Origin: Psammoneis japonica
Taxonomy: Eukaryota
Direction: 5' to 3'
Length of the DNA: 64,000 nt
NCBI GenBank assembly: GCA_008632985.1
Contig: QPGO01000195.1
Span: 1-64,000 of the forward strand
In this document: piece after piece, positions 6,457 through 53,500 of the stretch
Layout: every line of letters starts with the position of its first letter
How positions within the stretch are numbered: position 1 is the stretch's first letter
Program-made: the position numbers and the translations under genes
Notes under the pieces: generated by a model
The model's database searches: none
The model's input: the letters and a program-made list of their open reading frames with translations, nothing else
What the model was told of the DNA's origin: nothing

Positions 6457-6619
6457 TGCGGCGACAGAGCGAGAGCTGGAGATGGAGCTAAGAATGAGTA
6501 TTCATACGAGGTGCTGTCAATGGTTGCGTTACCAAGCAAAGCACAAAGCAAAAGATCGCATCTTCGCATGTGTCAAGCGCAGCAATTGTGTTGTCACAGT
6601 ATGATTCGTGTAGGATTCT

Positions 6620-33456: not shown

Positions 33457-34536
33457 TCACAAAACGCTTTCCCAACCACGACGAATCCAAGAAATTGGCC
33501 CAGCGTCCTGCTTGATCTTTGCCGCATCCGGAGTTTGCTTGCGACTTGCCGCAGCATCCTCTGCCTTGTTGTTCAACAGATTGACCATTGCCTGCCCGAA
33601 CGCTTGTCCCATTTTAAAATATGTATCGGCACGCTCATAGTAGTGGTGGATGCCGCCATAGAGGGGTGCTCCAGTGACGTGCGCAAACGGTGCTGTTGGA
33701 ACAAAGCTCGTATAGTCATCCATGACGGTCGCAAAGTACTGCGATGCTCTCATGGCGTGTACACGATCGCAACCTGGTCCCGTACAATTCAATGTGTGCA
33801 TGCCTAGTTCTCCAACAATGGCAGGCAAGTCTGAAATGTTGAGTTCCTTCCTGATATCAGCCAACAAATTGACGAGATTGGACTCGTATTCCTTGACAAA
33901 GGGCCAGTCCAATAGATCGTTCCATCCTTGAAACCACACAAATCCCTCAATTTCATATGATCCGTCGCTGGTTGGTACATAGGTCTCAATGTTTTCGAGT
34001 GCTTCATTGATTTCATCCACCATTGCACGATATTCCCATCCGTAGTGGCTCGGTTTGACGCCTTCAAAGTCTCCCTCCCCGGAACTGGGAGGCCGAAAGT
34101 CAACAGCCAGAGTACGGCCTCCAAACGCAGTCTTGACGAGAAAGACAGTCTCATTGACATAATGATCTCCAAGCACCCATCCAAAAAGCAACTCTGGCCC
34201 AAAGTGACCTTGTGCTGCAAAGTCCTTGTTTACCGTCAATTGTCCGTGGGCATCCTCAAACTTGACATAGACGTTTTCTCGCACCTTGTACGTTCCCGAA
34301 GTTTCATTCCAAAGAGTAGACCGGTACATGTTGTGAGGACAAGAGCAATTCTGTACCAACATATCCAGGTGTTTCATGTTGCCCATGCCAACCATATTGG
34401 ACTGTCCAGCCAAAACAAACACATGGATCGGTTTCGTGCCATCGTCATGAACGTCGGGGATTTGGGGACTTGCATGTGCAGAGCTGACAGCAAAGGAGAT
34501 GAGGAGCAAAATCAAAATGAAACGCAATCCAGACAT
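33457..34536 (-). CDS. Secreted SGNH hydrolase, sialate O-acetylesterase / CE6 (SASA domain)-like
   Basis: Signal peptide MSGLRFILILLLISFAVSSAHA; FVLAGQSNM, FGPEL, WFQGWND, IHHY motifs; intact ORF with normal TA/CG content. Confidence 0.85.
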   Translation of the reverse strand: MSGLRFILILLLISFAVSSAHASPQIPDVHDDGTKPIHVFVLAGQSNMVGMGNMKHLDMLVQNCSCPHNMYRSTLWNETSGTYKVRENVYVKFEDAHGQLTVNKDFAAQGHFGPELLFGWVLGDHYVNETVFLVKTAFGGRTLAVDFRPPSSGEGDFEGVKPSHYGWEYRAMVDEINEALENIETYVPTSDGSYEIEGFVWFQGWNDLLDWPFVKEYESNLVNLLADIRKELNISDLPAIVGELGMHTLNCTGPGCDRVHAMRASQYFATVMDDYTSFVPTAPFAHVTGAPLYGGIHHYYERADTYFKMGQAFGQAMVNLLNNKAEDAAASRKQTPDAAKIKQDAGPISWIRRGWESVL

Positions 34537-37500
34537 GATGAGACACAGAAAGACGCGCTCTGGAGTCGTAACAGTGCGACAGGCCGCCATTGTCATGTGC
34601 CCCAGCAAGTTCAAAGTGACAAAAGCAAGATCGCGCTGTAGGAACGAAGAGATGTGTAAAGATCGATCGCGAAACTTTCGCGGACTCGAAAGATTCCTGA
34701 TGCCGCCAGCGGCGGCAACATGTTCACACACAAGCTTGGATCTACCTCTGCCACTCTAGAGTGGCCAGCCAATGGCAGCTGCTAGTAGCTAGCTAGAGTG
34801 GTAGACTAGAGTGGGGCCCTAAGAAACTCGCAAGAATTCGGCCTTGCCCCCGATGGAATCTTCAACTCGACCATGAACTTTTCGCAAAAATGAGCGGCGA
34901 CGCCTCGCCGATGCTGACACCTTCATCAAGCGGACAACATGTTCTTCAATGTGAGGTGAAGCTGCACCCAGCTTGTTGACCAATTGCAACATGGGCACTG
35001 ACCCTGTTGGGTTGCAGAAAGTCGATGAGGTGGTTGGTTTGTGTTCATTGTCATCATCGTCATGTCAAGTGCCAGCACATGGGTGAAAGCAGCAGCGATC
35101 CTTCGGCTGCCATTGCCTCATTTTCGAGACCCAGTGGGAAGAAAAAGCAGCAGCAGCTGTGCCAAAAGAAAAAGAAGAAACCAGCTTTTTCTTCTGAGAC
35201 ATCAGATCCATCAACAGCAGGCCAGAACAGCACCAGCTTCTGTGCCCATGGCGGGCCAGCACACTCACAGCAATGTGACAGCGCGAAGGCTGGCTGGAAT
35301 GTGCCCAGAGGTGCAGCCCATCAAAAGGCTGCAGGCAGAGTTTGCCAAACTTGTGTGTGACCTTTGTTCACACCACAAAGTGTCTCTGCCCCACTTTTGA
35401 GCCAGCGTGAGTCTGTCAGTGGTTGTTGTGGACATTGACAACCTTTGCAAGTTTCTGCTTGTGATTCACTCAACAAGCTTGTGCATGATGGTGATTGTCA
35501 AATCATCAAGCTGAGTGCAGAAAAAACATTTGGCAGTGATTGTGGTGGAAAGGGGTGCACAAAAGTTGGCCACAAAGAATTAAAAGAATGACAGCATGAG
35601 CATGTGAGAGTCATTTGTTGCCCCAGCATTGCATCAGTGCACTGCCTTGCATCATTTGCTTGTGCACCAGTGCTTCATGTGGCCACATTGCCATGCACAA
35701 CCATGGCACACATGCAAAATGTGTGTCAATCAGCACTTGCACAGCATTTCTTTGTTTGTGATGAAAATTGCCAAGTCATGGAGCAGAGTGTGGAAAGAAG
35801 GACTTGATGACATTGTGGTGGAGAGGGGCGAACAAGAGCTCATGTGGAATTTTAAGAATTGTGCAGCAACCATTTTTTTGTGATGCTGGCACATGTCTCA
35901 CAACAAATGTCACAAGGTGTTTCACACCATGATTTCTTTGTTTGCCATGAAAAAGACTGAGCAAGGATTGCTGTCAGGTGGACAAGCAGTGCACATTTGC
36001 ACAGCATGTCAGTCAGTGCTCAAGCATTGTTTTTTTGTTTGCAGTGCCAAGAGTGCACTCTTCATTCTTGAGAAGAATCAAGTCAAGATGTCTGTCCCTC
36101 CTTTTGCAAAGATCTCTGCAGGACTCCTCTTTCCACCTTGTCTTTTGCAAGCTGGAGCTTGTCTTTTTGTCAAGCTTGCTCATTTTGGTGAATGCTGTGT
36201 GCTCCCTGTCACTCGCAGCTGCTGCCAGAATGCTGTCTGATGGCCTCCCATTTAGACTGCTTCATCTCAAGCAAAAGGTTTTGCTCATTTCCAGCTGAAA
36301 CAGACTCCACAAGCTCACGAGCCCTGCTGCCTTTTGTGGAGACATCATTGCCCTGTGTGCTCTTTTTTTTTATGATGATGTGGGTCTGACCAAGTGTGCT
36401 GCACTCCTGTCATCTGGTTTGCTCCTTGCACCTTGCTGTTGGCAAGGTTGTTTTTGTGACATTCTGTCACATGCACTCTTTCTCTGTGGCCTGCATTGGC
36501 TGCTGCCTGCTCTCTGGCAGACACAGACATCACAGATCAGGGGAGGGTGTTGGCTTGCTGGATCCATGGGTGATGGCCAGACCCAGATGCCCAAGCAGAT
36601 CTCCCTGAGATCTGTTGCTCACTTTCTTTCTGACCAGCACTGTGTCATCATCACTGTCCCACAGCACATGTTAGATTGTGCCAGCAGACCCTCTGTCTGT
36701 TGGCCCCTCCCAAATGGACTTGGCTGTCCTCTTTTCAAGGCACTGAATCAGGAGTGGCATCACACAGCTTGTGCCCCTTGCAAAGCTCATTTTCATCAAC
36801 TGTTCTGCAGCGGGCTCTTCCATGTTGTTTGTTTCTGGTTCCTCAGTCACCCGTTGCACTGCACAGAGAGGAGCCCATCATGATGACCTTGAAAATGTGG
36901 CATCTGCTGCAATGAGGGGGTCTTCACTCTGGCTCACACACCTTCCACAGCAAGGAACAAATTGTCCTGCTGGAATTCATCCCAGCACAGAAACTTGGCT
37001 TCTCTGCCACAAACAACTGCAAGAGACATGAGCACCAGCTTTGCACAACCACAACATGCACCTGGCTTGTCTTGATGAATGACATTTTTGCTGATGGATT
37101 TGAGGTCAACACCAAGCATCTTGTGGCTGCCGCAGCTTGCAGCTTGCTTGGAGCTTTTTAAGAGAACTGCAAACTGGAAGTGCCCCACAGGTTGGGTCTT
37201 TGATTTTTTCATTGCCTTTGATGAGAAGGCTGTGCTTTTTACCCTTGCCCAGGCTGTCTTGCAGCTTGGCACACCCCAGCTCTCCACATGGTTGTCCCAC
37301 ATGTCCAGGTTGAGGTCCTGTTCCTTGTTGTCTCTTTGATGCTTCAAAAACATTGTTTTGTGGATCATTCCCCCATGATCTTCCAAGTGTTGCTCTGTTT
37401 CAGAACAGGCGCACCTTTCATCCACCAAGACAGACCAGCGGAGCTCTTCATGATGGCCTCACCTTTTGCTTCCTCCTTGTCAGTGCATCCAATTCATCAA

Positions 37501-37949
37501 AGAGAGCCTTGTCATTTTCTTTTTCACACACCACTCAAAAAGTTTGATTGCCAACCCTTGGGAAAGCTGTGTTCTGCCAGCCCTGGCAAGATTGTCTGCT
37601 GCAGCACTTGTGTTGCTTGTTGCTGCAGTGCTGCTGCTGCCAGCAACACTGGGAATGGCTTTGCCACACCCAAAGACCAGCAATGAGCAAACTGCAGACC
37701 GGCAGTCAAAGCTGAGACAGGAGACACACACAAAGTTCTGCCACAGGAGCATGTTGTGCAGAAGACACTTGCTGAGAGTTGCTTCACCTTTCAAAGCAAA
37801 AGACTGGCTCCCCTGTTGTGGCCCCATCTCTTGGGTTTGTCCATCTTCGCTTTTGATTGTGCATGACAATTGGTGGTGCAAAAGGTCATGATGACATGGC
37901 TTCTCACCACAGCTCACATCCCCCCAGCAACATGTCTTGGATGAACCAG

Positions 37950-38950
37950 AGCTGTGGCAACATGCCACAGCACTTTGGTGATGACCCCATGTTCAGCTGC
38001 AATTTGGTGGAACAAGACACTGTCCAGGGCATGGCGGAGGCTGCCACAATTGCTGTGGAGGAAAGGCATCATGGCAAAGCAACTGCAGCTCATGAGTGGT
38101 GCAAGAACACATCACAGCACTTGGCTTGTCCTGCATTTTTTTGTGACAAAGGCACAGCATGTTTGGCATGCTCCCATGTGGGAGCTGTTCCATGCTTTGT
38201 GCTTGGGCCTTTGCAAACATTTCCTCCATGCCTTCTTCAACCTTTGCCAAGTCACAGAAAACATGCTGTCATGTTGTTGCAACTGTTTTCGTGATGGGAA
38301 ATTCACAATGCACAGAGCTGTCCTTAAGGAGTGCCCCAAGGTGTTCGACAAAGCTGAGTTCAAGAAATGTTTCAGAGTTGCAACAAATGCATCCAGAAGG
38401 CAAAGTGATTGGAAGATGGCAAGAACTCCATTTAAGAATGGAGTCACTTGGCAGACTCATCTGTCTGGCCAAAAGCACCCTGGTCTGTTGCTCACAACAC
38501 TTGCTGCAATGACAGGTGTGCTTTTGAAGGAAGATGAGAGCCTGGAGCTGCTGGAGAGTCACTTTGCCCACCTGATGTTCATGTCTTTGAGATTGGATGT
38601 GGCATTGTCCCTCTCTCACACAAGGAAAGCTTTCTCACTCAGCTTCAGAAATGCACTCTCAAGCATCTTAAATTGTTCTGATTTGTTGTTGGCACACTCA
38701 GAGAGTGGCACTCTCAGTCTGAACTTTGCATGTCCAAGTTCCATGGTTTTCTTCATTTTCTCTTTTGTGCTCATCAGTGCAGCAATGCCAACATTTTTTT
38801 GCAGGTTTCTGTGAAGCTCTTCCAAAGATGCTTTTGAAATGGCCTGCCAATTGTGACAAGGACCACAACCACGGGAAGCTTTCTGGCTGCAACATTGAAG
38901 AGATGATGGAGAGTGGTCGTGACCTTGACAGCCAAGATGAAAAACGAAAC
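37950..38950 (+). pseudogene. Plavaka-like transposase fragment
   Basis: RRQSDWKMARTPFKNGVT..THLSGQKHPGLLL, then in shifted frames KFHGFLHF and E.LPK..LKWPA, resembling Plavaka-type transposase motifs as recalled from memory. Confidence 0.45.
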
Positions 38951-39469
38951 TCAGCTGACTTTGCTCTTTAGAAAAAAGCCTCTTCCCGAGCACATGATGT
39001 GCTGGCCTTTGCCTTGGAGTGACGGCTTTCCAGGCTGGAATTCAGATTGACCCATTGGAACGACAGACAATCTTCTTTCTTGCAAATTGCACCAAAATCA
39101 ATTGTGTCGGATCGAATTTGTGGGGCAACCAAAGCCATCTCCATTCTGAGGTTCCGTTTTTGAGCAAGATCAAAAAGAGACTGAATCACACAACGTCTCC
39201 ACTGTTCTGTCACAACACTGAATTGGGCAATGTGTCATCCGCCTGCAAATTGGCGTGATGTTCGCGCTGGGGTGACGTGCTTCCATCATGGCACGAATGG
39301 CTGTCCAGCGACACAGCAGATGCGTTGTCACTCTCCTCTGGCTGATCAGCCACAGCAATTTCCATCCCATCAGCAGTCTCATCCAAGTTTCTGCGACGGG
39401 TCATTTGCTCCAAGCATTCAAATTGCGCTGCATCTTGTTCCCAGTCGTGGTCATCTTCAGCAATGGCAG

Positions 39470-40900
39470 AGGCTCAAAGTCGGCAATTTTTACGGACCAA
39501 AAACACAACAGCAGCTGTCACTGCAAGCAGCAAAGGATCAGGTGGTCCGTGCAAGTTCTTTTCTTTGTCATTGCCAAAGGAAATCTTGCACACTCCCCTG
39601 AGCAGCTGCTTGTTGACGGGCAAGCAACCATTTTGCTTTGGAACTTGAGCGGTTTCGCTTCCCATGAGGTTGGTGAATGCTGCGATGCGATCGTTCCGTT
39701 TCCTGATTGCTTCCTCCATTGCCTCTTTGCATCATCAGATGCATTGGAAGGGGTCTGTGGAGGCTTCAAGTGCACCAGAGATTGAACCAGTGCATGTGTC
39801 ATTTGACGCATTGGTGTCAAAGCCAAATTCAAGTTTTCCTCGCGCTGGCATGGCTTGCTTTCATGTCGTTCGCATTGGTCATCCCCACAGCGTCCGCTGC
39901 CCAAAGGTGGCTCTTGCGGTCCTCATCTGCACCCATCAAAACAATGGCATCACAGTCTTCACCGTTCCATTTCAGACATCGCTCACGAGATGGGACAGGT
40001 GGGATTGGCATTTGAGGATCGTTCTTGTCAAGTGACTTCTCATGCTCGTTGATGCGAGCTTTGTTTGCAACAAAGTGGCGCATTCCTGCCCCGCAAACGT
40101 GCTTCTTCCCAGTTTTCGCACCATGGAGCAAACGAAAAACTTCTTCCCATTCAATGGCAGTTGGGTCATGTCCCATGTCCCAACAGGCCACATCACACCA
40201 CTCGACAGCATGGGCAGGTGCATCGGGAAGCAGATGGGCCACCTGACTGCTTTTGATGTCCTCTGACGGCTCTCCAAATGTGTCAACCGGCCACATCTTC
40301 TTCTTGGCGTCACTGGATTGACTTTTGCCATTGAGACCAGCAGTTGGATCATCAGTTTTCATGCAAGCTTCTGTCACCTTGAACTCTTTCACGACATTGT
40401 CGTCGCTCTGTCCTCCTTGGACGGGGTGATCAGGTGGTTTGGCCCGTTTAAAAGCCTCCGCCCAATCAGCACGTGGTTTGCCGTCTTTTTCAGCAATGTC
40501 CACAACACTGAAGTGGGTGACCACATCGTCGGACAATGCCTCATCCAACGAACAAAAGAAAGCCCCCTGCTCCTTGAGGAAATCAATCATGTCCTCCTCT
40601 GAGCCTTCAATCTCCTCGTTCAGTTCATTGAGATGTCTTTGATGGCATTTTGACTTTCTTTTATTTAGTCGCTTGTGCATGCAGGGGGGAACTTCACCAA
40701 GAGGGTCAGTCATCTCTGTCCTCTCCTCTCTGCTGCTTTGTCACCATTGTGCAGGCAGTGAGAAATGCACCGCCGAGTCTTTGTGTGGCGATGTCAACGC
40801 CGACGGCGCCGAGTCTTGGTGTGGCGATGTCCAACGTCGATGGCACCGAGTCTGTTGTCTGCAGCTGTCAATGTCTCTTCAACAATGCGCGTGTCACTGT
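39470..40900 (-). pseudogene. Disrupted HNH-nuclease-like gene (Crinkler-HNH-like)
   Basis: SQVAHLLP...GMRHFVANKARI.EH...D HNH-like spacing; downstream PPDPLLLAV.AA in a shifted frame; Tyr absent. Confidence 0.5.
40771..40853. repeat. 36-37 bp tandem repeat, about 2.3 copies
   Basis: cgccgagtct at 40771 and 40807, caccgagtct at 40844; copies differ by CG->TG/CA (cgacggcgcc vs cgatggcacc). Confidence 0.75.
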
Positions 40901-41589
40901 GCAGCTGCCTTGACCATTTGTTGACGCAATTGCATCCCTCGCCGGATTGAAGGACTTTTTTTCTGTTGACTGCGTGTCTGCAACGGTGGACTTTCAACTT
41001 AACTTGCCAGTGGAGGATGCGAGGACCTGCTCTTCTCACAACTGCACCAACTCCCCATCTTGCAGCACTGCCTTGTCTCATGACCTCACTTTCGACGACT
41101 TTGATGTCAAGCAAAGAAGATGTTGTTGTTGCTGTTGTTCTGTTGTTCTTGATGTTTCAGTGCTCAGCGCCGCTCGGTGCTTGGTGCATGTTGCAGAACA
41201 ACTCCAAGTCATGAGTCTTAAATCATGTCCCGTGTGACCCTCTCGACTCGAATGCTTTGGAAGTTTTGGCCAGACTTTGACCACCTGTGTCTTGCGAGAC
41301 GGCAACAGGCATGTGTTGTTCATGGCATCTGGCACTTCAAAAAAGAATTGACTTTTTGAGGAGCCCCTTCATTGCACGGACAAGTGTGAGAGTCAATTTT
41401 CAGTGATTGGTCAGCTGACGTTCACACTTGTTGCTTCACCCCCCCCCCCCCCCACTCTGCTGGGCCCCACCCCACATGTGTGCTGAACTTCGCATCTGTG
41501 TGCTGTCAGTGTCCATCAAAATGGGTGTTTGGTTTTAAAAATGGGAGGCTGATTTTTGCACATGGCGTCACAGAGCTGGGATGGAAAGC

Positions 41590-42730
41590 AGCTTCCTCTG
41601 TCTTGTTGTTCAACAGATTGACCATTGCTTTTGCCTGCCCGCCCAGCAAGGCGCTTGTTGTCCCGCTTTAAAAGAACATGCATCGGCGCACTCACAGTGG
41701 TGGTGGATTCCACCCAAGAGGGGAGCTCCAGTGACATGCACAAATGGCTCCATTGGAACAAAGCTTGCACAGTTATCCACGACAGTTGCAAAGCCCTGCA
41801 ACGCTTCTCTCACAGCATTTGTGCCATCGCAACCTGGCCTGGCCCCATGCAATTCAATGCGCGCATGCCTGGTTCTCCAACAATGGCAGGCAAGTCCAAA
41901 ATGTTCAGTTCCTTCCTGATGTCACCCAACAAATTGATGAGATTGGACTCACACCCCTTGACACATGGCCAAGGAGGCAGGATCATTCCACCCTTGAAGC
42001 CACACAAGCCCCTCTCAACTTCACAAGAGCCACTGTCACTGGCAGGAGGCAAACAGGTCCTGATGTTTTTGAGTGCTTTGTTGACTTCATCCACCATTTT
42101 ACAATGGCCCCATCCACAGTGGCTTGGCTCAATGCCTTCAAAGTCTCTCTGCCCAGAGCTGGGAGGCCCAAAGTCAACAGCCAGAGTGCAGCTTCTTCCA
42201 AATGCAGCATTGATGAGAAAGACAGTCTCATTGGCACATTGACTGCCAAGCACCCATTCAAAAAGCAACTCTGGCCCAAAGCAACCTTGTGCTGCAAAGC
42301 CCTTGTTTGCCATCAATTGTCCTCCCTGCATGTCCTCAAACTTGACACAGACATTTTCTCACACCTTGTGTGCTTCTCCCAAAGTTTCGCTCCACAGAGC
42401 ATCAGACTGGTGCATGTTGTGAGAGGACAAGAGCAATTCTGCACCAACAAGTCCAGGTGTTTCATGTTGCCCATGCCAACCACATTGGACTGTCCAGCCA
42501 AAACAAGTGCACAGATCAGTTTTGTGCCATTGTCATGAATGTCAGGGATTTGAGGCCAGCATCTGCAAAGCTGACAGCAAAGGAGATGAGGAGCAAAATC
42601 AAACACAATCCAGGCATGATGAAACACACAGAAAGACACACTCTGAAGTCACAACAGTGGCAACAGGCTGCCATTGTCATGTGCCCCAGCAAGTTCAAAG
42701 CACCAAAGCAAAGATCATGCTGCAAGACTG
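41590..42730 (-). pseudogene. Hypermutated duplicate of the SASA esterase gene at 33457-34536
   Basis: Colinear with about 33550-34640 in the same orientation; LAGQSNVVGMGNMKHLD, FGPELLF and LPAIVGE preserved; Tyr->Cys/His changes, frameshifts. Confidence 0.92.
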
Positions 42731-44897
42731 AAAAGATTGTGAAAAAATTGAAGATTCCTGTGCCAAAGAAAAGATCATGCTGCAAGAATGAAAGACAGTG
42801 AAAAAAGACACTTTGAAATTTTGATCATGTCATCTGCACTTTTCTTCCCTGATGCCCCACCAAGGCCACATCACAAATCATCACTCATCACATCCAGAAG
42901 GCATTGTGCCAATCTCACACTGGCATCTCATCTCTTGTGATGTGCCCAGCTGACATCTCAGATGGAGAAAAGTGGGAGGATCAAGTGAGGCAAACAAAAA
43001 AGAAGATCATCAAGTGTGAAAAAAAAGGACAACTTGATCATGCTTGCTTTGAAGTTTGAGCTCTCCACATGTGAGACCTGATTCTTTCACAGAGAGGTCA
43101 CCTCTCTTTCATGTTAAAACCCCATCTCCATTGCTTTGCTTCACACTGGCCCCACCAGGAAAAGAAGAAGAGCCAGGTCATCACTGTGATGATGTCAATG
43201 ACTTGCAAAGCAGCACACGGAGCTGCCGCCACTGCAGAGCTCCGTTCTTTGACCAAGTTGCTGCAGAGAAGAACATGAAGTTGATGAAACAGAGCTTGTG
43301 AAGAATCATGAAAGAAGAAAGTGTTGCTGATGCAGAGAAAGGGGGAAGGAGTGATGAAGCAAAAATTAAAAACTGGTTTGTGCAGCCTGCCTGTTGTGGG
43401 AGCTTGTTGCTCAAAAGCAGTTGATGCCCACATCATCAGGCACCATGTGACAGAACTGAAAAATGTCAACCAAGGCACTCACAGGGTCAAAAGCATCTTT
43501 CATGTTCCAAAGTCTTGGCAAGGTGGTTTTGGCAAATTTCAACTGGAAGCACTGACCGCCCATGGATGCCATGTGGTTTTCATCATCATTTTGTGAGCTT
43601 GAGCACACTTTGCCTGTGACAACAATTGCAAGGACTGTGCACCACACATGTGCTCACCCATTGGAAAATTGTGGGTTGACCCCAAGTTTCCCCCCCATTT
43701 GTTTTGTGACAGTCTCTTTGTCATGATGGCAAGCATCAATGGAGAGAGCAGCACTCAGTGCCAGCCTGATGGAGTGGACTCTGCTGCCAAAATAAAAAAG
43801 ATGTAAAGCTTCTTGCTGTTGTCTGAACACAACACCGCATTGCAGTTCAGGGAATTTTCCCAGGCCTGATTGTGGGCTGTGGCACGTGTTTCTTCCTCAG
43901 AAGTCACTGTTTTGCAAATGGCTCAGCAGGATCACCAGACTCTCAAGGCCAGCCACAAGTGTGTTTTTATTGCATGCCCCACATCTTTGTTTGCTCTTTT
44001 GGCTCAACTTTGTCGCGGCACCTCATGTGGAACGTGGAGTGTGGTTGAAGGAAGAAGCTGCTGCTCAATTTCTGGGTCAAAATTGATGTGTGGCACTTTG
44101 ACACAAAGCAGACAAGGCAGCCAACAAGAGCAAGGAGGAGCTTGGAAAAATGGCAATGTCCATCAAAAGATTCTTCAAAAGCAGCAAAAGAGAGCTTGGT
44201 GCCATTTGGGGCTTTCTGACCGACAAGAGCCTCTCAAGACGGAAACCAAGAAGGCCGCCAGTGCAGTCAATCCAGACATGGCAGAGGAGCAAGCTGGGGA
44301 ATGTGAGTGTTGATGGCACTGAGGGCACACCAGGTATAGTCAGAAGTAGACAGACAGAAGCCCTCCGAAAGTGATCAACAAATGACAGCATAAAAAAAAT
44401 GAAGCATCCGGACAGGTGACTGCTGGCTACCGTAAGACTGCCGGTAGAGCTCTAGAGCCACTGCGACTCTAGAAGCAGCTAGTCAGCAAGAGCCATCAGC
44501 TAGGAAGCAACCTGTTGTAGAACAAAGATGAGGACTGCTTGTAAACACTTTGAACTGGCAGTGTGGAACATTGCAGTGGGTTCGGGATGAATGACTCGGA
44601 CTGAAATGGAAAAGCTGCCATGCCGAAAATATCTCAAGCATGCAACAAAGGTTTCATCACGACTTATCAATATATCACTAGGGCCCTAGCGTTTAAAATA
44701 AGAGGGTCGCCGCCCCATGTCATGCAACAAGCTTAAAAGAATTGAATGCTCATAAGATATAAGATCATCTACACAGCAGGTGATATCGAGAATGCATGCG
44801 TAGTTCCTATCCATGAGAACCATCGCAAAAGGATCGCTACTAACAACCCAAAGTGTTCCGTTCGAATCGGCAATATACATTCATACCTCTTCAAGCT

Positions 44898-45387: not shown

Positions 45388-45535
45388 AGCTCGTTTTGAA
45401 GATGTAGTGTGTGTGTATGAGTCAGCCGCCAAAGTGGTTCAACGTCCGCGACGCCATTGGACCAGAGTCACCGCAGTCACCACTCCCGGCTTGGGAGGTC
45501 TGTAATTGGTACGGGAAGAAGAGGAAGAGAAAGAC

Positions 45536-48500
45536 CTCCCACGGATCGTTACATTTTTTTCAGTACTGAGCTAATCTGGCCAGTTAACAAAAATCAAAAA
45601 GTGGAGAACGACTTACAGACCAAATTTTTGTACCAGCCTCTACACATTTTTCTCGTAGACACCATGGCGCTGTTGCGTCGTTTGCACCGTCGTCGTCGCG
45701 TCTTTCTATGGGGTGAGTTATGCACAAGATTCATCTTCTTTGTCCATGTCATGTGTACGCGTTGACCCAGTCTCGACAAGTGCCGTGCGTGTTACAAAAT
45801 GTGTCGTCGACTGAAGCGGTGTGATGACTCGTTAAATTTGTCATCCTCTAACTTTGTTTCTTTTATTTTACCTTCTTTTTTTGTTTGCACTCCAATGTAC
45901 AGCATTTTCTTGTTAAAACACAGGCATGAGTAAGGGGTGACAGAGTATGAGGCGAGTTGTCAACCTTGCAACAAGCGTTTGTGGTCGTCACATCATCTGA
46001 TGGCATGTTCTTTCTTTGTTTTTCGACTGGCCGTTCCTTTGACTTCTTTCGCTCTTGTGGCATCTGCGCTTACCCCTTGTTCTGCCTTGTCTTTCGACAC
46101 GTCAACATCACTTGATGCGGAAACAAAATTGAAGCCTTTCAAGTTGACACAAGGCTTCTCTTTGTTGCCTCTGCATTTGGAAGGCCTGGGAATGACGCTC
46201 ACCAACGCGAGCGCTCTGAGACTCGGGCTCATTCTGGATTTGTGGACAAGGCACCCCTTCATGTTCTTTGCCTTGTTCCTGCGGAAGGTTTCAACAGCAT
46301 GTGTGTCCATTCCAAGGGATTCGAGACTGACTGAATCGTTCCCTGCAGGGTGTTTCCGCACCGAGTTCATCACAGACAGCACACGACAGCCTTCCTTTCT
46401 TCTCGGTGTGGAACCGGTTGTTGACAGATGAGCACAAGCTTTTCGAGAAATTTCATTTCCAATGATGTCTACTTTCAGCAAGTGCCTTTTGGAAGCTGTG
46501 CCAAGAAGCATCTGATTGGCACTTGGGCGATCCGTTCTTGTCGGCTCTCCAAGAATGCTCAATTGTTTGTCTTGTCTGCTTCGTTTTGCCTTCAGATCGA
46601 TCGGCATTGCAGCGGCATTGAAGCAACTGAGAGAATGTCAGCTGCAGAATTAGCAACTCACAATCCTGGGCTGTTGCATTTCTTGTTCCATTGTAGATGA
46701 TTCCTCCCTCAACCATGTCTTCATCTGTGTCCACGCTAAATTCATCAGATGTGTCCGACAAGGCAGCTCCATCGTCGTCGGAGATAGACGATGACGACTC
46801 GCTCGCGACAGCGCCCACTGCACTCGAAGCGACATGTGCCGAGTTGTGGGAGACGGCTGAGCATTCCACATCACTCTCGCACCAGCAGTCACTTTCGTCA
46901 TGAGACGGGTGTGTGCTTTCGACAATGCTCGTCGCACCTTTGCTGCGGTCGCTTGGGCAAGAGCTGCAGCAGCTTGAGTCTTGCAAGCTGTCAGTTGCAA
47001 CACAGTTGGAATCCTCGTCAGATTCTTGGCGCATCACCCATTCATGGCACTCACTCATGTCTGTCAAGGGAGTTCCACCGGCAACATTCAAACGCGCACC
47101 CTTTACCCTGCTCTTTGCTTGAAAGTCCTCTGCTTCCATTTTGCAAACATTCGCAAACATGGCAATGTCGAGGCTCTGTCTTCCCAAATCGCACACAACC
47201 TGGGCAGCCCGGTGCATGTTGCGTGCGTTTTCACAGAGATCGCGTCTGTCTGACGGAGTTGTTCTCTTGGTCTGCTTCTTTGACCTGACAAGCTCTCTGT
47301 GTGTGGCAAGACACTTGCGCATGAGGCCCAAGAAGAATGACCTTCAAGTGAGTCCGTCTTGGTCCGTGGGGAGCGTGTCGCCTGCCTTCAAAAATTTGTT
47401 TCCTTTCTCACAAAGATCGTCCATTGCCATGCCATGCTTTCCTTCATTCATCTTGACAGTGTGGTTGATGAATTCTTCCAGCAATTCTGTGGGAGTCATG
47501 CTGGACGCCACCTCCATCCAAGAGAAGCATGGATTGACGTACTTGGGCTTTCCCGACGTCTGGAAGAGAGGCATGCTCTCGATTAGAATCTTGCACAGGG
47601 TGACCGAATCCGAGTGTTTTGCACTTGAGTCGTGAAGTGGGAGAAGATCAGCAGCTTTGACAAGCAGCGCGTGAAATTGCAGAACTGCGTCCGTCTTGCA
47701 TTTGCTTTGTTGGTCTAGGAACTCTTGAAATCTTTTACCGAAATGAAGGATTTGTTCCAATTCAAGTTCACACTCCTCCGTCGCAGAGTCAATGGCAGCT
47801 TTCCCTTCGGGTTCCGACACGAAACGTTCCAGGAAAAGCAGCTTAAGTTCGCCCTGGCCCATCTTGAGAAGCTCTTTTGCTGCATGAACATCCGATTTAA
47901 TTGGGTCCGCGGTGATGCGTTTCATCCCAAGCATCTCCTTCAACGGCTTCAGGTTGCAGTTGTGGCCAAGCGGAAGATTGCTTCTAAAAGGTGGAAGCCA
48001 ACATGGAGGTCTCCGTGCATTGGTGTCAATGTTTCGCAGGCTGCGAGAAGAGCGTCTTCATCGCTGGCGTGCGAGCCATCCAGGATTGCTTTTTCACAAA
48101 GATCTGCGATGCACTTGTGCACTCCTTCAATGGTTTTCCAGTCTCCGCAAGTGTGTGTCTTCATGTGCGGCAATCGTGCAGTCTTCGTCAACTTCCCACA
48201 ATCGTCCTCCTCCAACGTCTTTGTAAGTGCAAAGAGCTCCCGCAGGTGTTCTCGAAGCCCATCGGCCCTTGTCTCTGCATGGTGTTAGAGTTCTGGCCAC
48301 ACCCACAGCGATTTCTTTTTTGCGTGGCGGTTCCATGTGCCGACCATGCGACTGTGCTCATCAGCCAAGTCGGGTCCAGCAACGTCAATTTTGGAACTCC
48401 ACCAGTCGACCGCCCTACGTTGAGATTCCGTCATGACACGGTTGCGGTTGCCTGGTGCAATGCGCTGTCGAACCAGGTTTTCTTTCAAAAAACTGCATTG

Positions 48501-50905
48501 AAACACAGCCTTGACACGTCGACAACACTCATCTGGTGGGGATTCCATTCCTGGAAGCCTTGGGATTTCTTGAGTGCTGTCTCCAGCAAAACGAGGATGC
48601 GACTCAAGGGACGGAGACTGATGCAGTGTCCATCCGTCCAATGGAAGGGTGACCAGCATCGTCTCTCCCGCTTTCACTTGTTTTTCTTTTGATGATTTTG
48701 AGGTTGGCACACAGCATGCCTGTCTCGCTTTCAACAGGCACAACATCTGGCAGTGGTCCTCCGTTGCGGGCACGCTTTCGACTGCTTCGAACAGTGAGTC
48801 TCTTCTTCAAAGTGAAGACTTCGATGTGCCATGACGTCGCCCGCTGTCCATTTGTAGAGACGCCGTTTCAAGTGTGCTGTCATTGTTCTGTGAACCGGAA
48901 TCGATGATCGACCACCACGCTGAAATGCCATGTGCCGAAAGAACTGAAAATTGTCGAAAATCAACGTGAGCACCGAGTCTTCAAGGATGCCATCGCGCTG
49001 CAACTCTCGAAACCTTTGGTGGTTGTCTTTCATCCATGTTGACGCTTTGGATTTGTCAACCTGAAGGCCCATGTGGCTTGCCATTTCGTCATTTCCCTTT
49101 CCGCAAGCCATTGACCCAAGTCGCAGAACAAGCGCAAGGTTCGACAGACTGTGGGCATTCCTCATCCTGAGGATCATGAGGCACATTGCAAAGCAACGTG
49201 CATGTTTTAGCCCCTTGCACTTTTTTTGTTTCTTTGTGTGTGGTGCCTCGGCGACGTCGGTCCACGCCCACAGCAGAGGGCACGTTTCTTGAAGATCTCG
49301 CATCGTGTCAGACAGGGACAACAGCGGCTGGTCAAAGTCGTCCCACCCATTCTGGTGGATGTTTTCAACACGTTCTCCAATCTGCTCATCAAGTCTTTCC
49401 GCCCATTCTTTTCCTTTTAAGATCGGGACGTCTGCAGGATCAATCTCGTCGGCCTGACAATTAGACGATGTGGAATCAATGTCAAATTCTCCCAATTGTG
49501 CCTCAATGCTTTAGCCACCCATGCAAGTCGAATCATTTCATGTGAGTCTCCACACCTCCCTTTCCAGCTGTTGGATTATGGGAACGAGTTGTGCCAATGG
49601 GTGAATGATTTGGGTCTTGCTCTTTGCGTTCCCGTGCATGAGTTTCCCAAGGCCCGACATGTTGGCAAGTGATGACAGTCCCTTTCTTGACCTGCTCGCG
49701 TTTTGTCCCACAACTCAACGTTGCCCATGAACACATCATAGAATTTTACTTCATGACAAAGTCGTTTGGCTGTGTCCTCGCCCGTGACGACCACAGTGAG
49801 GGCGTCACCTCGATTGTGAAAACCTTTGATGATGTCATCCTTGTCTGTGTTGTCCTTGGCAAGCGTCTCTCCTGTTAGATTGGACATCACAGTGCAGTGC
49901 ACCACGGTGCATGTTTCATCGCCACGTTTGAGTGCATGTGGCCCGGTCTCGGGCAATCCAAATCTGGACGGAGAGAAATCTCGGCCGCTGCCAACAACGA
50001 GCACCGTGTCACCTGTGCATTTCAAAAAGGCCTCTTCCATCAGCAGGCGCCTCAAATTGTTCGCATTGCCGTCTTCATCAAACAAAGCCTGACAATGGCG
50101 CAAATTGAATGGTGTGTCAGCACCTTTCTTCAAACCTTCGCCTTTTGTCTGAGTGCCTCGTGTCAACATGCCAGTTGACTTCCTCGACTTGCGAGGAGCG
50201 CGTTTCTTTTTTGAGAAACCACCATTTGGAGCAAAAGTGGAGAGCCGATCAACGCACTCATCATGACTGCTTGCAACCAAGGCCAACCTTCTCATCTCTT
50301 CCGCACTCTTTTCACCTGCCCCAGTGGTCAAAGATTTCGCATCTACATGCGCCGTTTTTCCCATGCTGTCGGTGCACTTGACCGTTGTCTGGAGACAATG
50401 GAAAGAATAAAAGTGGCCTTCTTCATCACGCCTGTCAATTGACTTTCCTCGTGAAAGAGATGAACCCATGTCATGTGCACTGTGCCGGCACTGCGTGTGA
50501 TTCTAAAGGATGATGTGCTGTGCTTAAGGTAAAATTATAAAGATTGTTATCGTGCACTCGTTCGCTGCCGGTGCACTCGAAGTCTCGCTGAGTCAGCTTC
50601 GACGAACAATTCTGAGTCGGGCTTCCAAGACATCTTTTGGATCTTTGAGATCCGATTCTCACATGACACAGGTGAGCGCCTTGCATTGTGTGAAAGTTGA
50701 CGAAATCCGGTTCAAACAATGCCCTGGTAATGCATGATGCAAATAAATGAGCATCCGCCATGGTCTGCATGCATGCAGTGCGTGCATCGCATCGGCGGGA
50801 GGTGGAGGGAGCTTTGTACCAAGTCTAGTAGAATTTTACGCGCCACGTAGAAATCGCGTAGAAAAATTAACTGGCCAGACTGAAAAGTGCAACGCTCCGT
50901 GGGAG
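45536..50905 (-). mobile_element. About 5.4-kb terminal-inverted-repeat element carrying a fragmented DUF6589-like gene
   Basis: Left end CTCCCACGGATCGTTACATTTTTTTCAG...TCTGGCCAGTTAA (45536-45587); reverse complement of right end CTCCCACGGAGCGTTGCACTTTTCAGTCTGGCCAGTTAA (50867-50905); interior TA-depleted. Confidence 0.7.
46450..50469 (-). pseudogene. Fragmented large ORF, DUF6589-like putative transposase
   Basis: Successive minus-strand fragments: LIFDNFQ..R...QRGGRSS, PMHGDLHVGFHLLEAI, FQTSGKPKYV, MAMDDLCEKGNKFLK (resembles the xPxDLxxEHxNxxxK motif). Confidence 0.5.
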
Positions 50906-50970
50906 TGCGGTAAAGATTTCATGCTCGTGGCTGGTTAACGATAAGCCCATAGCCCAATCTCTTTGTCTGA

Positions 50971-51102: not shown

Positions 51103-51549
51103 CTTAACGGTAGTGGTCAGATTTCAAAATCTGAGCAATACAGAAATGTCAATGATGAATAAGGATTTTAGATTGCTTCTGCCGTAAATATCATTACGCC
51201 AATGCCACTAATGAATACACAAATGAATTTGTATTCCATCCTTTTCCTGAACTTTGATCTATCGGCATTTTCGATACGAGTACTCGACGCGATGACAACA
51301 ATGAGGCATGCTTGTATGTGTCATGGCCATAAGCTGTGAGGCGTACCGTCACATTTGGATTGAACTCGGGGATCTTGATGTCGAAAGTAGCCATTTGTTT
51401 GACATTCGTGATTTTTCATCGCCCACAAACTGGGATTTCAACTGAGTCGAGTTGATGTTGGACGTGTTTCAAAGCACTGCATTTGATGAAACAATTGAGG
51501 GCTCTGGAATTATGGCATTTTATGCCATGGAGACTTAAAACAGTACATG

Positions 51550-53500
51550 GGTTGACAATCAAGCAGTGATCGGGTTTGCCAACATTTCCAAAAATGTGAC
51601 AACAAAAATTGCATCACTCAACAACCAACAACATCTCAAGAGATGGAAACAAGAAAAGTGACTCCTCTTTGCACTTGAATTAAAAGAGACAACAATGCAC
51701 AACAAACATTTGAGAAGGACAAGAAGCTCTTGAATGCATGGAACCAGAAGAGAGTCAATGAATCGCTCTTGTTTTGAACCTCTTGACCTGTTCTGTCCAT
51801 GATGGTGGTTGGTTGAAAGGTCGGTGGTGGTTTTTTTATGTGACTTGCAGCTTGAGGCATGTTGATGCATGAACACATGGCCCATGTGTGGTGTCACCTT
51901 TGGAAAGTGCCACTTGTGGAGCTTGAGTGGACAACTCTCTGTGCCAAGCTTTGTCCGCCAAATGCTCCGTCAAAGTCCAGATGCTGCCACATCCCACCCG
52001 ACCATTGACACAAAACAGTTCTTGCAAAATGTTGTTGCCTGTTTCCCTCTTCCTCTGCAGAGCAGCCCTCTTGGTGACAGTGCTGCCCACATGCCAGAAT
52101 GTGCTCAAGAATGCTTTCCATTTTGCCAGCAAAGATGCCCAGCGCGGGGCTGTGTGGGCTCGAATCTCTCTCAAGACAAGCTGACATTTGTGCCTGGCAC
52201 TGGCGGCAATGCTGAGCCCTCCTTCCTGTTTGACTTCCCAGGAGTGTGCCCAGATCTCCTGCATGCTGAGTGGCTCAACCACAAGAGTCGCTGTCTTTGT
52301 CAGTTTTGTCAGCAGGATGTGCCAAGGCTGCTCTGGCCATGTGTGCGCAAGGACAGCTGCGACAGCGCTTTCTGCTGTCAGCAAAGAGTGTGAGCTGGCT
52401 GGACTGCCCAACCCCACACTTCACAGCTCCTTGGCAGTCACCCCAAATCAAGTGCCAACTTGGGGTCAACCGCACCTGGCTGGTTGCAATGCAAAGACAG
52501 CTGTGGCAGCACTTTGTGACAACAAAGAGAGTGCGAGCTGGCTGGGCTCCCAACCCCACACTTCACAGCCCCTCAGCACTGGCTCCCAATCAAATGCCAG
52601 CTTGGGGCCAACGGCTGTGAAGCCATCATTGCAAATCCCTGTGCCTGCCCCCTCACACAGCTTTGCACAGGGTCAACATGTGTGGCCTTTGCAAGATGGG
52701 CCCTGGCTGGCTGCTGGCTCCTCACCCACACGGCTTGCACAACAAGCCACCACAACACAGAGCACTGTGGGGTGAGTGCAGCACAGCCCAAACAAGCACA
52801 CCATGCTGAGATCACCCAGAGTTGGCTGCTGTCCTGGGGCTCCATTCAAAGCTAAGCTGGGCTGCTTGGCTCCTTGGTGTGCAGCACATGCTTGGCATCA
52901 CATTCTCTTGTTGCCAAGCAGCCGCATGGCATGTGCCCACCATTTGTGCCTGCAACAGCGACCCCAGCCACAAAGAAGCCAACAAAAAGTTGAACCTGGT
53001 TTTGTGGTTGAAGAGTGAAGAAACTGTGAGTGAAGTTTGGTTCAAGATTTGTTGGCAATGCCAAGTGGGCAACCAAAGAGAGGCGCCAAAAATGGCTGTT
53101 TTCTTGCTCATTTCTCAAGAGGAGCTTGCGCTCATGATGCAGGGTCTGAAGCAAGCACCAGCCAAGACAACAGTTTTTTTTTCTCTCTGCCCCACTTAAA
53201 ACACAGCCTTTGAGTCAATGTGGTGCTCCTTCAACAACTCACGCACACTGGGAAGAGCAGCTGGAGCCAGGGCAGCTGGCCTGGCAGGGCTTGGCTGACA
53301 CCCAAGCTGGGCTGCTCAGCCTGGTGGCACACACTCAGTGCCACATTGTCACCCTCCTGCAACTGCAATGTGCCCCCACTCTTTGCACCTGCAGCAACCA
53401 CCCTGGATCAAAAGAAGCCAGTGCAACTCTGGCCATGGTTGCATGGTCAATTGTGTGTGTGTGTTCAACGGTTGATTCCCCTCTTTTTTTCTCTTTTCCT
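51550..53500. mobile_element. Hypermutated block 5, family unidentified, with an internal repeat of period about 143 bp
   Basis: TA and CG depleted; gagctggctgg...cccaaccccacacttcacagc at 52392 and 52535. Confidence 0.65.

Follow-up and report, generated by a model that had tools for sequence, protein, structure and literature searches.

The window, by which the whole stretch of 64 kb is meant, contains five sharply bounded islands poor in the dinucleotide TA, which together make up about 46% of its length: A (6650..13550), B (21500..28800), C (34850..44300), D (45950..50500) and E (51500..53470). In composition tracks of 250 bp and 50 bp, their edges are sharp to about 50-100 bp. Background composition was taken from 32,454 nt of the window, where TA occurs at 40.4/kb (observed/expected ratio, O/E, 0.58) and CG at 56.0/kb (O/E 1.01). 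TA falls to an O/E of 0.02-0.10 in the islands and CA and TG rise to 1.4-2.4, and this depletion and enrichment are confined to them. Segments that have lost both CG and TA amount to 19,406 nt, with CG at 7.5/kb (O/E 0.13), TA at 2.1/kb (O/E 0.03), CA at O/E 1.78 and TG at O/E 1.92; a preliminary description of this DNA had rightly named its most degraded segments as having lost both CG and TA. Island A has lost both dinucleotides, with edge zones (6650-7100 and 13000-13550) that are TA-free and keep CG. Island B carries CG-lost flanks on both sides of a kinase-like pseudogene. Island C is composed of a low-copy repeat (34.8-38.8 kb, word depth 120-457), a single-copy pseudogene, a repeat piece (40.8-41.5 kb, word depth 335) and a copy of a SASA gene. 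Island E, which has lost both CG and TA, is a high-copy repeat with a word depth of about 6300-7900, where single-copy sequence has about 62. By depth, the islands consist in part of repeats, and other mutated segments are single-copy.

Island D is a TA-poor core of 4551 nt in which CG has been kept. Its 28 TA (6.2/kb, O/E 0.10) stand against 184 expected (Poisson, p=1.4e-46), while its 234 CG (51.4/kb, O/E 0.81) compare with 255 expected (Poisson, p=0.10), which leaves TA density at 15% of the background and CG not significantly reduced. The preliminary description had pointed to abundant CG and few TA at 48301-49400, where exactly 3 TA and 64 CG are counted, and the CG-rich 40-mer that it cited at about 46770 begins at 46771. 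Its proposal that TpA loss is uncoupled from CpG decay is borne out here: some 80% of the TA in D is gone while CG is not significantly reduced, and TpA loss is not a by-product of CpG decay. The island encloses a dead copy of a DUF6589-family gene (47134..50085, reverse strand), recognized by homology, with 15 relatives among 1.84e9 representatives. PF20231 was found in 4 of the 10 relatives scanned, and one relative is fused to a helicase. The homologue P0121 can be aligned to D over residues 32-605 (37-46% identity); the alignment passes through frames -1, -3 and -2, which makes 2 frame changes, and contains 1 in-frame stop. Word depth in D is 76-92 (single-copy level about 62), and two paralogous contigs skip the island. 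Between D and a paralogous contig, adjacent TG<->CA doubles occur at 49797/8, 49910/1, 49917/8 and 49933/4; such doubles between two copies indicate independent hits after the duplication. An inverted repeat surrounds the island, its left arm (45536..45587, forward strand) lying in the TA-normal flank and pairing with the right arm (50867..50905, reverse strand). The arms share 13 nt of perfect and 18 nt of further matching sequence, and the two matches were reached in 0 of 100 shuffles.

Two further dead genes keep part of their CG. In island B, 25649..27201 (reverse strand) is a full-length copy of a kinase-like gene that is conserved in diatoms. This copy is 76% identical to residues 1-518 of the 526 of homologue P0138 and is interrupted by 1 frame change and by 2 in-frame stops, both at Arg positions. 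Undoing the CA/TG changes restores the homologue residue at 45 of its 125 mismatches, compared with 6 and 16 under control rules. In island C, 39249..40707 (reverse strand) is a full-length copy of a gene for an unnamed protein family of about 498 aa, single copy by depth, that is 58-66% identical to residues 6-487 of the 498 of homologue P0191; it contains 2 frame changes and 1 stop. An HNH_2 match of this family in the atlas (score 0.90) serves only as a lead towards an HNH-nuclease-like function. Pooled over 25250-27000 and 39000-41750, CG stands at 37.3/kb (O/E 0.60) and TA at 2.7/kb (O/E 0.04), which agrees with the earlier remark that about 25300-27000 and 39240-41300 share the state of D. 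These segments had also been called young insertions, a label that does not fit, as 25.3-27.0 and 39.2-41.3 kb hold dead cellular-type gene copies and not recognizable transposons. A scan of 211 stop-to-stop frames from the islands (7 + 88 + 116) gave no Pfam transposon domain above the cut-off.

The near disappearance of TA has consequences for reading frames. Stop triplets TAA and TAG occur at 1.4 and 0.3/kb in the islands compared with 9.0 and 8.6, and open stretches are longer there in every one of the six frames (34 aa against 26 aa on average). As TAA and TAG nearly vanish in every island, the frames lengthen and ORF length is no guide to preservation. The view that the CG-retaining segments hold the best-preserved ORFs is thus not judgeable by ORF length, although by homology these copies do have the fewest frameshifts.

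The direction of change could be read from a pair of SASA (sialate O-acetylesterase-like) genes lying 8 kb apart. The intact gene (33457..34755, reverse strand), which serves as the unmutated reference, has a 432-aa open frame with PF03629 at 6e-24, diatom homologues with identity up to 53%, and CG at 53.1/kb and TA at 26.2/kb. The old hypermutated copy (41588..42751, reverse strand) has lost both dinucleotides and aligns with 33551-34666 at 79% identity in the ACGT alphabet and 92.5% in a purine/pyrimidine alphabet. Of its 33 TA sites, 27 have become CA or TG and 1 is kept; 44 of 52 CG sites read CA (26) or TG (18) and 4 are kept, while other dinucleotides are kept at 57-88%. The alignment has 111 other mismatches (1108 columns) and 22 gap openings (1172 columns). 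Per site, the frequency of T>C is 0.45 at TpA and 0.07-0.10 at TpG, TpC and TpT. Since the intact gene is untouched and single-copy segments are mutated, it would be the island and not the repeat that is targeted.

The same direction is found at conserved tyrosines, whose codons begin with TA (TAY). The three independent CG-retaining dead genes read Cys or His at these positions, and the relatives of these segments have a median Tyr content of 2-2.5%. Pooled homologue Tyr positions number 54 in the kinase-like pseudogene (C 28, H 12, Y 5), 51 in the copy from the family of about 498 aa (C 17, H 12, Y 0) and 82 in the D gene (Y 5, H 11, C 10); with P0121 alone, the homologue has Y16/H15/C7 and D has Y2/H27/C17. 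On the coding strand, Tyr>Cys is an A>G change and Tyr>His a T>C change, so that the ratios of 28:12, 17:12 and 10:11 place hits on both strands of the same copy. TA loss is therefore mutational and not native composition, and the possibility named in the preliminary description, that the families are natively TA-free, fails with Tyr-normal relatives and Cys/His in the window copies. Conversion favours R-T-A (equivalently T-A-Y) and largely spares TTAA. Residual TA relative to the background is 0.51 for TTAA, 0.21 for CTAA, 0.07 for GTAA, 0.06 for ATAA, 0.05 for CTAC, 0.04 for ATAG, 0.015 for CTAG and 0.012 for GTAC, with 0/207 for ATAC and 0/100 for ATAT. In the SASA pair, T>C per strand follows the same 5' preference (A 11/22, G 15/25, C 3/11, T 0/6).

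Four segments can be ordered by an independent proxy of age, although frame changes counted against distant homologues make this order coarse. CG and TA stand at 52.8 and 6.4/kb in D, 39.8 and 2.7 in the C pseudogene, 33.5 and 2.6 in the B pseudogene, and 9.5 and 2.6 in the SASA copy, with 2, 2, 1 and 22 frame changes or indels, respectively; intact exons have CG at 48-56/kb and TA at 26-50/kb. Copies with 1-2 frameshifts retain about 65-100% of CG and at most about 20% of TA. In 4/4 datable segments TA goes first and CG later, as had been proposed from the early saturation of TpA. Judged from retention, TA would be lost at no less than 5-8 times the speed of CpG decay, and CpG decay in turn would be about 25 times faster than change at other sites (in the SASA copy, 8% of CG kept at 10% other-site divergence, about 25-fold per dinucleotide). 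CpG loss depends on position, presumably that of a methylation domain, as well as on time, so 'later' is not purely temporal. The suggestion that the CpG/TpA ratio may serve as an insertion clock is limited: TA reaches its floor so early that age information resides only in the CpG term, and this term is confounded by position, as CpG loss varies within a fragment of uniform age. Taken as a whole, the earlier interpretation is partly supported: the TA conversion and, in these four segments, the order of the losses find support, while the transposon identity does not and the clock is confounded.

The explanation that we favour, and consider probable, is that two processes act in the islands: a fast A:T>G:C conversion, probably by DNA adenine deamination, and a slower methyl-CpG decay. 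The islands would be silenced dead gene copies and repeats, targets of two separate transition processes. The direction, the context, the restriction to islands, the independence and the order of the two conversions are shown by the sequence itself. The faster turns TpA into CpA or TpG on either strand, with R-T-A strongly favoured, destroying Tyr codons and TAA/TAG stops and reaching its floor by the time a copy has 1-2 frameshifts. We infer from the spectrum that it is enzymatic and targeted; the most likely chemistry would be deamination of adenine to inosine in DNA, read as G, by an ADAT2/TadA-like deaminase that chromatin or RNA cues would guide to silenced DNA. The slower process converts CpG to TpG or CpA at about the pace of methyl-CpG deamination, presumably in dependence on cytosine methylation, in a domain slightly narrower than that of the first. 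A segment adjoining island E (50842-51508) counts against this explanation, having high depth yet normal TA and CG. So do the small number of segments behind the age order, four in all, the partly positional retention of CpG, and the cellular type of the datable targets, for which no viral relatives were detected.

In our view the fast process is of one kind with the island-targeted A:T>G:C hypermutation described in Bigelowiella natans. In mutation-accumulation lines of that alga, two integrated viral regions had 231 mutations, of which 230 were A>G/T>C, all on TpA (bioRxiv 10.64898/2026.01.13.699255). The mutations arise de novo at about 1000-fold background, with a TpA rate of about 6e-7 per site per generation and in only some lines, and Mettrop et al. 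put forward an ADAT2-like candidate (bioRxiv 10.64898/2026.01.13.699255). Both systems have nearly all changes as A>G/T>C on TpA, giving TpG/CpA on either strand, in discrete regions whose long-term trace is clustered TpA depletion with CpA and TpG enrichment. B. natans is a rhizarian, while the window probably belongs to a stramenopile (diatom), and the TA-erasing pattern has so far been reported only for this one unrelated alga. Its regions remain well short of saturation, with TpA only 1.8-fold lower in the NCLDV region, compared with an O/E of 0.02-0.10 in the islands here, and its targets are viral, whereas the datable targets here are cellular-type gene copies together with repeats. The words 'diatom', 'CpG', 'flanking' and 'context' do not occur in the main text of the preprint, which likewise contains neither a link between TpA loss and CpG decay nor a preference for R-T-A-Y.

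Among other explanations, the one with most in its favour concerns the clock only. The CG-retaining, TA-free parts may be unmethylated and the CG-lost parts methylated, a difference of state and not of time, which we hold possible but distinctly the weaker reading. It would account for the 4 surviving CG of the uniform-age SASA copy, all in its first 240 bp (4/15 vs 0/37, Fisher p=0.005), for the TA-free, CG-retaining zones of 400-550 bp at 4/8 island edges, and for the abrupt switch of CpG state at both ends of the kinase-like pseudogene. Indels, however, are about 10 times more numerous in the CG-lost gene copy than in the three CG-retaining copies, and ranking the segments by residual TA (6.4, then 2.7/2.6, then 2.6 per kb) gives the order found for CG. 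Moreover, 3 of 4 differences between the window and a sequencing-run contig at 38729-41331 are window TG/CA against CG (P<=0.03), which suggests that CpGs of the C pseudogene are mutable or methylated at present and that CpG decay is ongoing in this CG-retaining segment. A single chemistry for both losses seems rather unlikely, either a TET/JBP-like oxidation of 5-methylpyrimidines at palindromic YpR (T in TpA, 5mC in CpG), with the oxidized bases mispairing, or a dual A/C deaminase strongly preferring TpA. The two losses do share products (CA/TG) and islands, and 5-formyluracil mispairs with G. ADAT2 homologues have been reported to edit both A and C in DNA (cited in bioRxiv 10.64898/2026.01.13.699255). 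Against this, D lost TA without measurable CG loss, the domains of the two losses differ at 4/8 edges, the pace of CpG loss matches plain methyl-CpG decay, and neither a TET/JBP nor a deaminase gene was seen within the 64-kb window. Misdirected mismatch repair, in which a T:G-to-C:G activity protecting methylated CpG would miscorrect replication T:G mispairs at TpA, is quite unlikely. It would fit TA>CA/TG on both strands in DNA with methyl-CpG-type decay and explain the good CpG retention of D, but CpG is unprotected in the CG-lost islands, the R-T-A preference has no obvious basis in it, and the B. natans rate of about 6e-7 in some lines only looks induced and not like a constitutive bias.

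The remaining explanations carry less weight still. It is very improbable that a long-read assembly was miscalled systematically at modified bases (5mC, modified T or A) in a way that mimics CG>TG/CA and TA>TG/CA, though the three differences in the C pseudogene would suit such errors and the platform of assembly and run is not on record. Over stretches of 0.8-2.6 kb, run contigs and islands show 0-4 differences; the contigs being short (about 214 nt on average) and of even word depth of about 62, they look like short reads. All these contigs come from the one sequencing run that covers the region, probably from the source sample, so this confirmation is not fully independent. The copies also have frame changes and 10% other-site divergence, and the B. 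natans signature came from Illumina data. Reverse transcription and insertion of ADAR-like A-to-I edited transcripts is more improbable still. ADARs favour U before the edited A (cited in bioRxiv 10.64898/2026.01.13.699255), but each copy has Tyr>Cys as well as Tyr>His, which places hits on both strands, the loss runs continuously through non-genic flanks to island-wide edges, and the B. natans mutations are de novo in DNA. Native composition or selection, in foreign or viral DNA or in TA-avoiding families, can be practically set aside: compositionally distinct blocks with sharp edges would suit it, but the intact SASA paralogue has 33 TA where the copy keeps 1, relatives are normal in Tyr where the window copies have Cys/His, TG<->CA doubles separate the paralogues, and the datable gene copies gave no viral relatives.

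Other hypermutation systems resemble the islands in part. Fungal RIP is also a defence-like, context-specific transition hypermutation of duplicated or foreign DNA, with a dinucleotide signature and sharp domains. Its signature is opposite, since RIP changes C>T mainly at CpA and creates TpA, whereas TpA is destroyed here (O/E 0.03) and CpA/TpG are created (O/E 1.8-1.9). RIP hits both copies of a repeat, unlike the SASA pair and the single-copy segments described above. Diatom DNMT4 is related to RID, but no function is known for it (PMC9998398). APOBEC/ADAR hyperediting likewise yields deaminase-driven, context-dependent transition clusters in selfish DNA, but acts on single-stranded DNA or double-stranded RNA intermediates and leaves strand-specific clusters in retro-copies, whereas here both strands of resident DNA are hit, non-genic flanks included. 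In E. coli, very-short-patch repair, the bacterial analogue behind the mismatch-repair explanation above, is thought to deplete CTAG. This resembles the present pattern in that a T:G-directed activity changes TA in a palindromic context into CA/TG; there the effect is genome-wide, modest and limited to CTAG, while here it extends to all R-T-A-Y, in islands only, and is near total. Methyl-CpG decay, as in vertebrates, plants and methylated diatom transposons, explains only the CG half of the island pattern, sharing with it CpG>TpG/CpA on both strands, at a rate at least roughly 10-fold that of other sites, and a slower course in GC-rich contexts, where CpG retention in the islands is higher (0.41 at GCGC vs 0.05 at CCGA).

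Five islands in the window (A, 6650-13550; B, 21500-28800; C, 34850-44300; D, 45950-50500; E, 51500-53470) make up about 29 of the 64 kb. Their edges are sharp to about 50-100 bp, and they break with the background composition: TA is almost gone, and CA and TG are raised to an O/E of 1.4-2.4. The GC content of the window is 0.48, and the background (32,454 nt) carries CG at 56.0/kb (O/E 1.01) and TA at 40.4/kb (O/E 0.58). Island D (4,551 nt) holds 234 CG against 255 expected (p=0.10) and 28 TA against 184 expected (p=1e-46). The segments 25250-27000 and 39000-41750 (4,502 nt) have CG at 37.3/kb and TA at 2.7/kb, and the remaining 19,406 nt of island sequence have 7.5/kb and 2.1/kb, respectively. 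The TA-poor state is real and stands far above chance; the counts in the preliminary description were exact (3 TA and 64 CG in 48301-49400, the string cited for its CG beginning at 46771). Between the islands lie genes for an AMP-binding enzyme, a dehydrogenase, a dehydroquinate synthase and a SASA esterase, as well as TPR, ATP10, rhodanese and histidine-phosphatase proteins. For two genes of the window, the best named homologues belong to diatoms (40-71% identity), including Phaeodactylum, Amphora, Mayamaea, Attheya, and a Bacillariaceae MAG.

From background to islands, TAA decreases from 9.0 to 1.4 per kb and TAG from 8.6 to 0.3 per kb. This loss lengthens the stop-to-stop frames of the islands in six of six frames, so that ORF length by itself is no mark of preservation and gene callers can be misled. 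A Pfam scan of 211 such frames (7 from D, 88 of at least 110 aa from the other four islands, and 116 of 70-109 aa from CG-lost sequence) found no family reaching its curated cut-off, and in D only a weak match to DUF6589 (E=0.0045).

Homologous proteins have been identified for the three CG-retaining segments. The minus strand of D encodes a member of a DUF6589-containing family with 15 relatives among 1.84 billion representatives, an assignment with which the atlas lead agrees; PF20231 was found in 4 of 10 scanned relatives, and one relative carries a helicase fusion. Aligned with its closest relative, P0121, over residues 32-605, D runs through three frames, with two frame changes and one in-frame stop. 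The segment 25649-27201 in island B (minus strand) is a full-length copy of a kinase-like gene from a family conserved across diatoms (residues 1-518 of 526, 76% identity), interrupted by one frame change and two stops, both at Arg positions. The segment 39249-40707 in island C (minus strand) is a full-length copy from an unnamed family (residues 6-487 of 498) with two frame changes and one stop; a resemblance of this family to HNH nucleases is a lead only.

Tyrosine is encoded by TAT and TAC, and a working TA-free gene would therefore be without any encoded Tyr. The residues of the window copies were read at the Tyr positions of their homologues, pooled over every aligned stretch. At 82 such positions D has Tyr 5, His 11, and Cys 10 times; the kinase-like copy has Tyr 5, His 12, and Cys 28 times at 54 positions, and the copy at 39249-40707 has no Tyr, 12 His, and 17 Cys at 51 positions. 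In the alignment with P0121 alone, the relative has Y16/H15/C7 and D has Y2/H27/C17. In the kinase-like copy, 45 of the 125 mismatched residues return to the homologue residue once CA/TG are set back to TA/CG, compared with 6 and 16 under two control rules, and a relative of 82% identity (P0178) has retained its Tyr. Families natively free of TA, which would have spoken against the earlier interpretation, are not what is found, as homologue Tyr reads Cys or His and the median Tyr content of the relatives is 2-2.5%. Together with the frame changes and stops, these substitutions identify all three segments as hypermutated pseudogenes and not natively TA-free elements. Two relatives of D from metagenome assemblies, P0122 (166 aa, 0% Tyr) and P0128 (339 aa, 0.3% Tyr; family median 2.5%), may be hypermutated copies in other organisms, an ambiguous case in which Cys plus His is not raised. 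A scan of viral contigs with the three gene families, covering close relatives only, yielded no match beyond a single weak one to the kinase domain (L001, 29% over 56 residues), and metagenome contigs searched with a single protein and a two-row alignment gave no relative. Predicted 'proteins' in diatom gene sets that lack Tyr and are rich in Cys and His may be hypermutated pseudogenes.

The direction of change can be read from the SASA pair, the only long repeat inside the window: an intact gene (33457-34755, minus strand, open 432-aa frame) and a dead copy in island C (41588-42751, minus strand). A self-comparison of the window in the purine/pyrimidine alphabet, which is blind to transitions, detected only this pair and short local repeats. 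Identity increases from 79% to 92.5% in that alphabet, and the differences are thus mostly transitions. With the intact gene assumed to be the ancestral state, 44 of 52 CG in the copy have changed to CA (26) or TG (18) and 4 are retained, while 27 of 33 TA have changed to CA (17) or TG (10) and 1 is retained; the remaining dinucleotides are retained at 57-88%, and other mismatches affect 111 of 1108 aligned columns. Per site, T>C reaches 0.45 at TpA against 0.07-0.10 elsewhere, and C>T reaches 0.44 at CpG against 0.05-0.07 elsewhere. The gene (33551-34666) and its copy lie 8 kb apart in the same orientation, suggesting a local duplication that was parted later by island C; in the purine/pyrimidine comparison the flanks had no further shared part.

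The two losses proceed at different paces. Intact exons, which have no frame changes or indels, carry CG at 48-56/kb and TA at 26-50/kb. The corresponding values are 52.8 and 6.4/kb in D (two frame changes), 39.8 and 2.7/kb in 39249-40707 (two), 33.5 and 2.6/kb in the kinase-like copy (one), and 9.5 and 2.6/kb in the SASA copy, which has 22 gap openings in 1172 columns. TA is therefore at or near its floor in four of four datable segments, and the drop in CG is confined to the SASA copy, whose indels independently mark it as old. The retention of 8% of CpG in this copy at 10% divergence of other sites corresponds to an approximately 25-fold faster loss per dinucleotide, which is the pace of methyl-CpG decay in other organisms. 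The densities in the kinase-like copy and 39249-40707 suggest that TA disappears 5-8 times faster than CpG or more; the figure is a minimum, since both segments have already reached the TA floor. D remains above that floor (about 6.2-6.4/kb against 2.1/kb in the oldest parts), which fits a progressive process. The earlier proposal that TA loss is separate from CpG decay, and faster, is thus borne out, D keeping its CG with so little TA.

CpG loss reflects more than time alone. The four ancestral CG surviving in the SASA copy all lie in its first 240 bp, beside a CG-retaining segment (4/15 against 0/37, Fisher p=0.005), and this copy is one fragment of a single age. At four of the eight island edges (A left, A right, B right, and C left), 400-550 bp are TA-free but CG-retaining, and at the remaining four the TA and CpG borders coincide; the TA domain thus extends slightly beyond the domain of CpG loss, a difference that two separately targeted processes would produce. 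Within 38729-41331, three of four differences between the window and a contig of the sequencing run are window TG/CA against CG (model P 0.003-0.03), so that CpG decay, or else methylation-linked miscalling, is ongoing in a CG-retaining segment. The proposed use of the CpG/TpA ratio as an insertion clock can be kept with two corrections: TA saturates early and dates only the youngest copies, and CpG loss is also positional. With methylation domains allowed for, a relative clock of two ranges could be built, in which TA density would date the youngest copies and CpG density the older ones.

One DNA run, probably of the source sample, covers the region, and its contigs were placed at a likeness of at least 80%. 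An assembly artefact at modified bases is an unlikely origin of the TA-poor state, although the sole confirming run probably derives from the very sample that was assembled. Against a single-copy baseline word depth of about 62, depth is 120-457 at 34.8-38.8 kb, 62-69 at 38.8-40.8 kb, 335 at 40.8-41.5 kb, 63-79 at 41.5-44.8 kb, 570-1250 at 45.5-46.8 kb, 76-92 at 46.8-50.2 kb, and about 6300-7900 at 50.8-53.5 kb. Mutation has reached single-copy segments and has spared the intact SASA gene at 8 kb distance, so that the island, and not repetition, is the target. Copy number as the driver of CpG loss was rejected (depth against CG O/E, Spearman -0.19, p=0.37, 23 TA-poor bins). Within 49797-49969, a paralogous contig of single depth departs from D at four places by a pair of neighbouring changes (TG for CA or CA for TG), and also by single changes between CG and TG or CA, some in each direction; each copy was therefore mutated independently after separation. 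The stretch 50842-51508, which adjoins island E and includes a 54-bp tandem repeat in three copies (50970-51131), has a word depth of about 7000 against 62 and normal TA and CG; very high copy number alone is thus insufficient to draw TA or CG conversions.

The residual TA of the islands (82 in 29,405 nt), scaled to background density with contexts taken from either strand, depends strongly on its neighbours. It amounts to 0.51 for TTAA, 0.21 for CTAA/TTAG, 0.07 for GTAA, 0.06 for ATAA, 0.05 for CTAC, 0.04 for ATAG, 0.015 for CTAG, and 0.012 for GTAC, with 0/207 for ATAC and 0/100 for ATAT. The SASA pair provides an independent match to this rule: per strand, T>C at TpA occurred at 11/22 sites after A, 15/25 after G, 3/11 after C, and 0/6 after T, and where only one of the two strands had the purine, that strand was the one converted, by 6 to 1. 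In adenine terms the preference is T-A-Y, by which Tyr codons (TAY) become Cys more often than His. Bacterial TadA acts naturally on the U-A-C of a tRNA anticodon loop and, to our knowledge, every ADAT substrate carries a U immediately 5' of the edited A. An R-T-A-Y context is thus at least compatible with an ADAT/TadA-like enzyme, and the preference, with TTAA spared, narrows the candidate enzymes.

TpA-specific hypermutation of resident DNA has so far been the subject of one report, a 2026 preprint on the chlorarachniophyte Bigelowiella natans (Mettrop et al., bioRxiv 10.64898/2026.01.13.699255). In mutation-accumulation lines of this rhizarian, two integrated viral regions received 231 of the 302 nuclear mutations. 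All but one of the 231 were A>G/T>C, and these 230 all lay on TpA, at a rate of about 6e-7 per site per generation in some lines only; the authors proposed DNA adenine deamination by an ADAT2-like protein. In the window, probably from a diatom, this signature has reached saturation and is overlaid on regular methyl-CpG decay; its chemistry and the cue for its targeting are presumed. Literature searches for the pattern in diatoms brought up this preprint as the only relevant work; its main text does not contain the words 'diatom', 'CpG', 'flanking', or 'context'. Relative to that text, the window adds three features: the independence of the TA process from CpG decay, well ahead of which it runs; the R-T-A-Y preference; and the striking of ordinary cellular gene copies in islands, with a paralogue left intact 8 kb away, from which the target is a domain and not a repeat. 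The diatom methyltransferase DNMT4, whose function is unknown, is a relative of RID, the enzyme of RIP; the passages covered of that study do not report a RIP-like process (PMC9998398).

It is conceivable, although we hold it somewhat short of probable, that diatoms possess an active defence similar to RIP but chemically opposite. An island-targeted adenine deaminase or thymine-modifying enzyme reading R-T-A-Y would rid silenced DNA of Tyr codons and of two of the three stop codons in a small part of the time that CpG decay takes, and the same signature in a rhizarian would make the system ancient within SAR. If so, a TpA defence could be a general and overlooked shaper of protist genomes, including those of diatoms, which are among the most important marine primary producers, with built-in dating of young insertions.

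The borders of D were searched for terminal repeats and target-site duplications, and only an inverted repeat of 40-52 nt was found (45536-45587 and 50867-50905; 13 nt perfect plus 18 nt), in TA-normal flanks about 400 bp outside the core edges. Its arms lie about 80-95 bp upstream of inward-facing ATG codons at 45665 (plus strand) and 50772 (minus strand), and it could represent a terminal repeat or a shared promoter with convergent transcription across D. Two contigs of the run link 45504 to 50733, omitting 5228 bp including D, with 13 other letters between; short similar words (TGTAAT, GGTAAT) flank both break points, and the right arm falls outside the omitted stretch. This arrangement gives D the appearance of an insertion when paralogous loci are compared, with about 445 bp and 232 bp of the omitted stretch being TA-normal. 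At its right edge, 50503-50550 has 6 TA in 50 bp and the next 150 bp are again TA-free; from its sequence, this cluster reads like part of a short GT...AG intron of the minus-strand gene. Island E contains internal direct repeats (52345-52470/52489-52612 and 52881-53011/53324-53450), 79-94% alike depending on the alphabet. In island A, T exceeds A and CA exceeds TG at 7-9 kb, and A exceeds T and TG exceeds CA at 9-13 kb, with the sign changing at about 9 kb. As TG exceeds CA on the coding strand of the dead genes, this switch can be read as a coding-unit boundary and may separate two degraded coding units on opposite strands.
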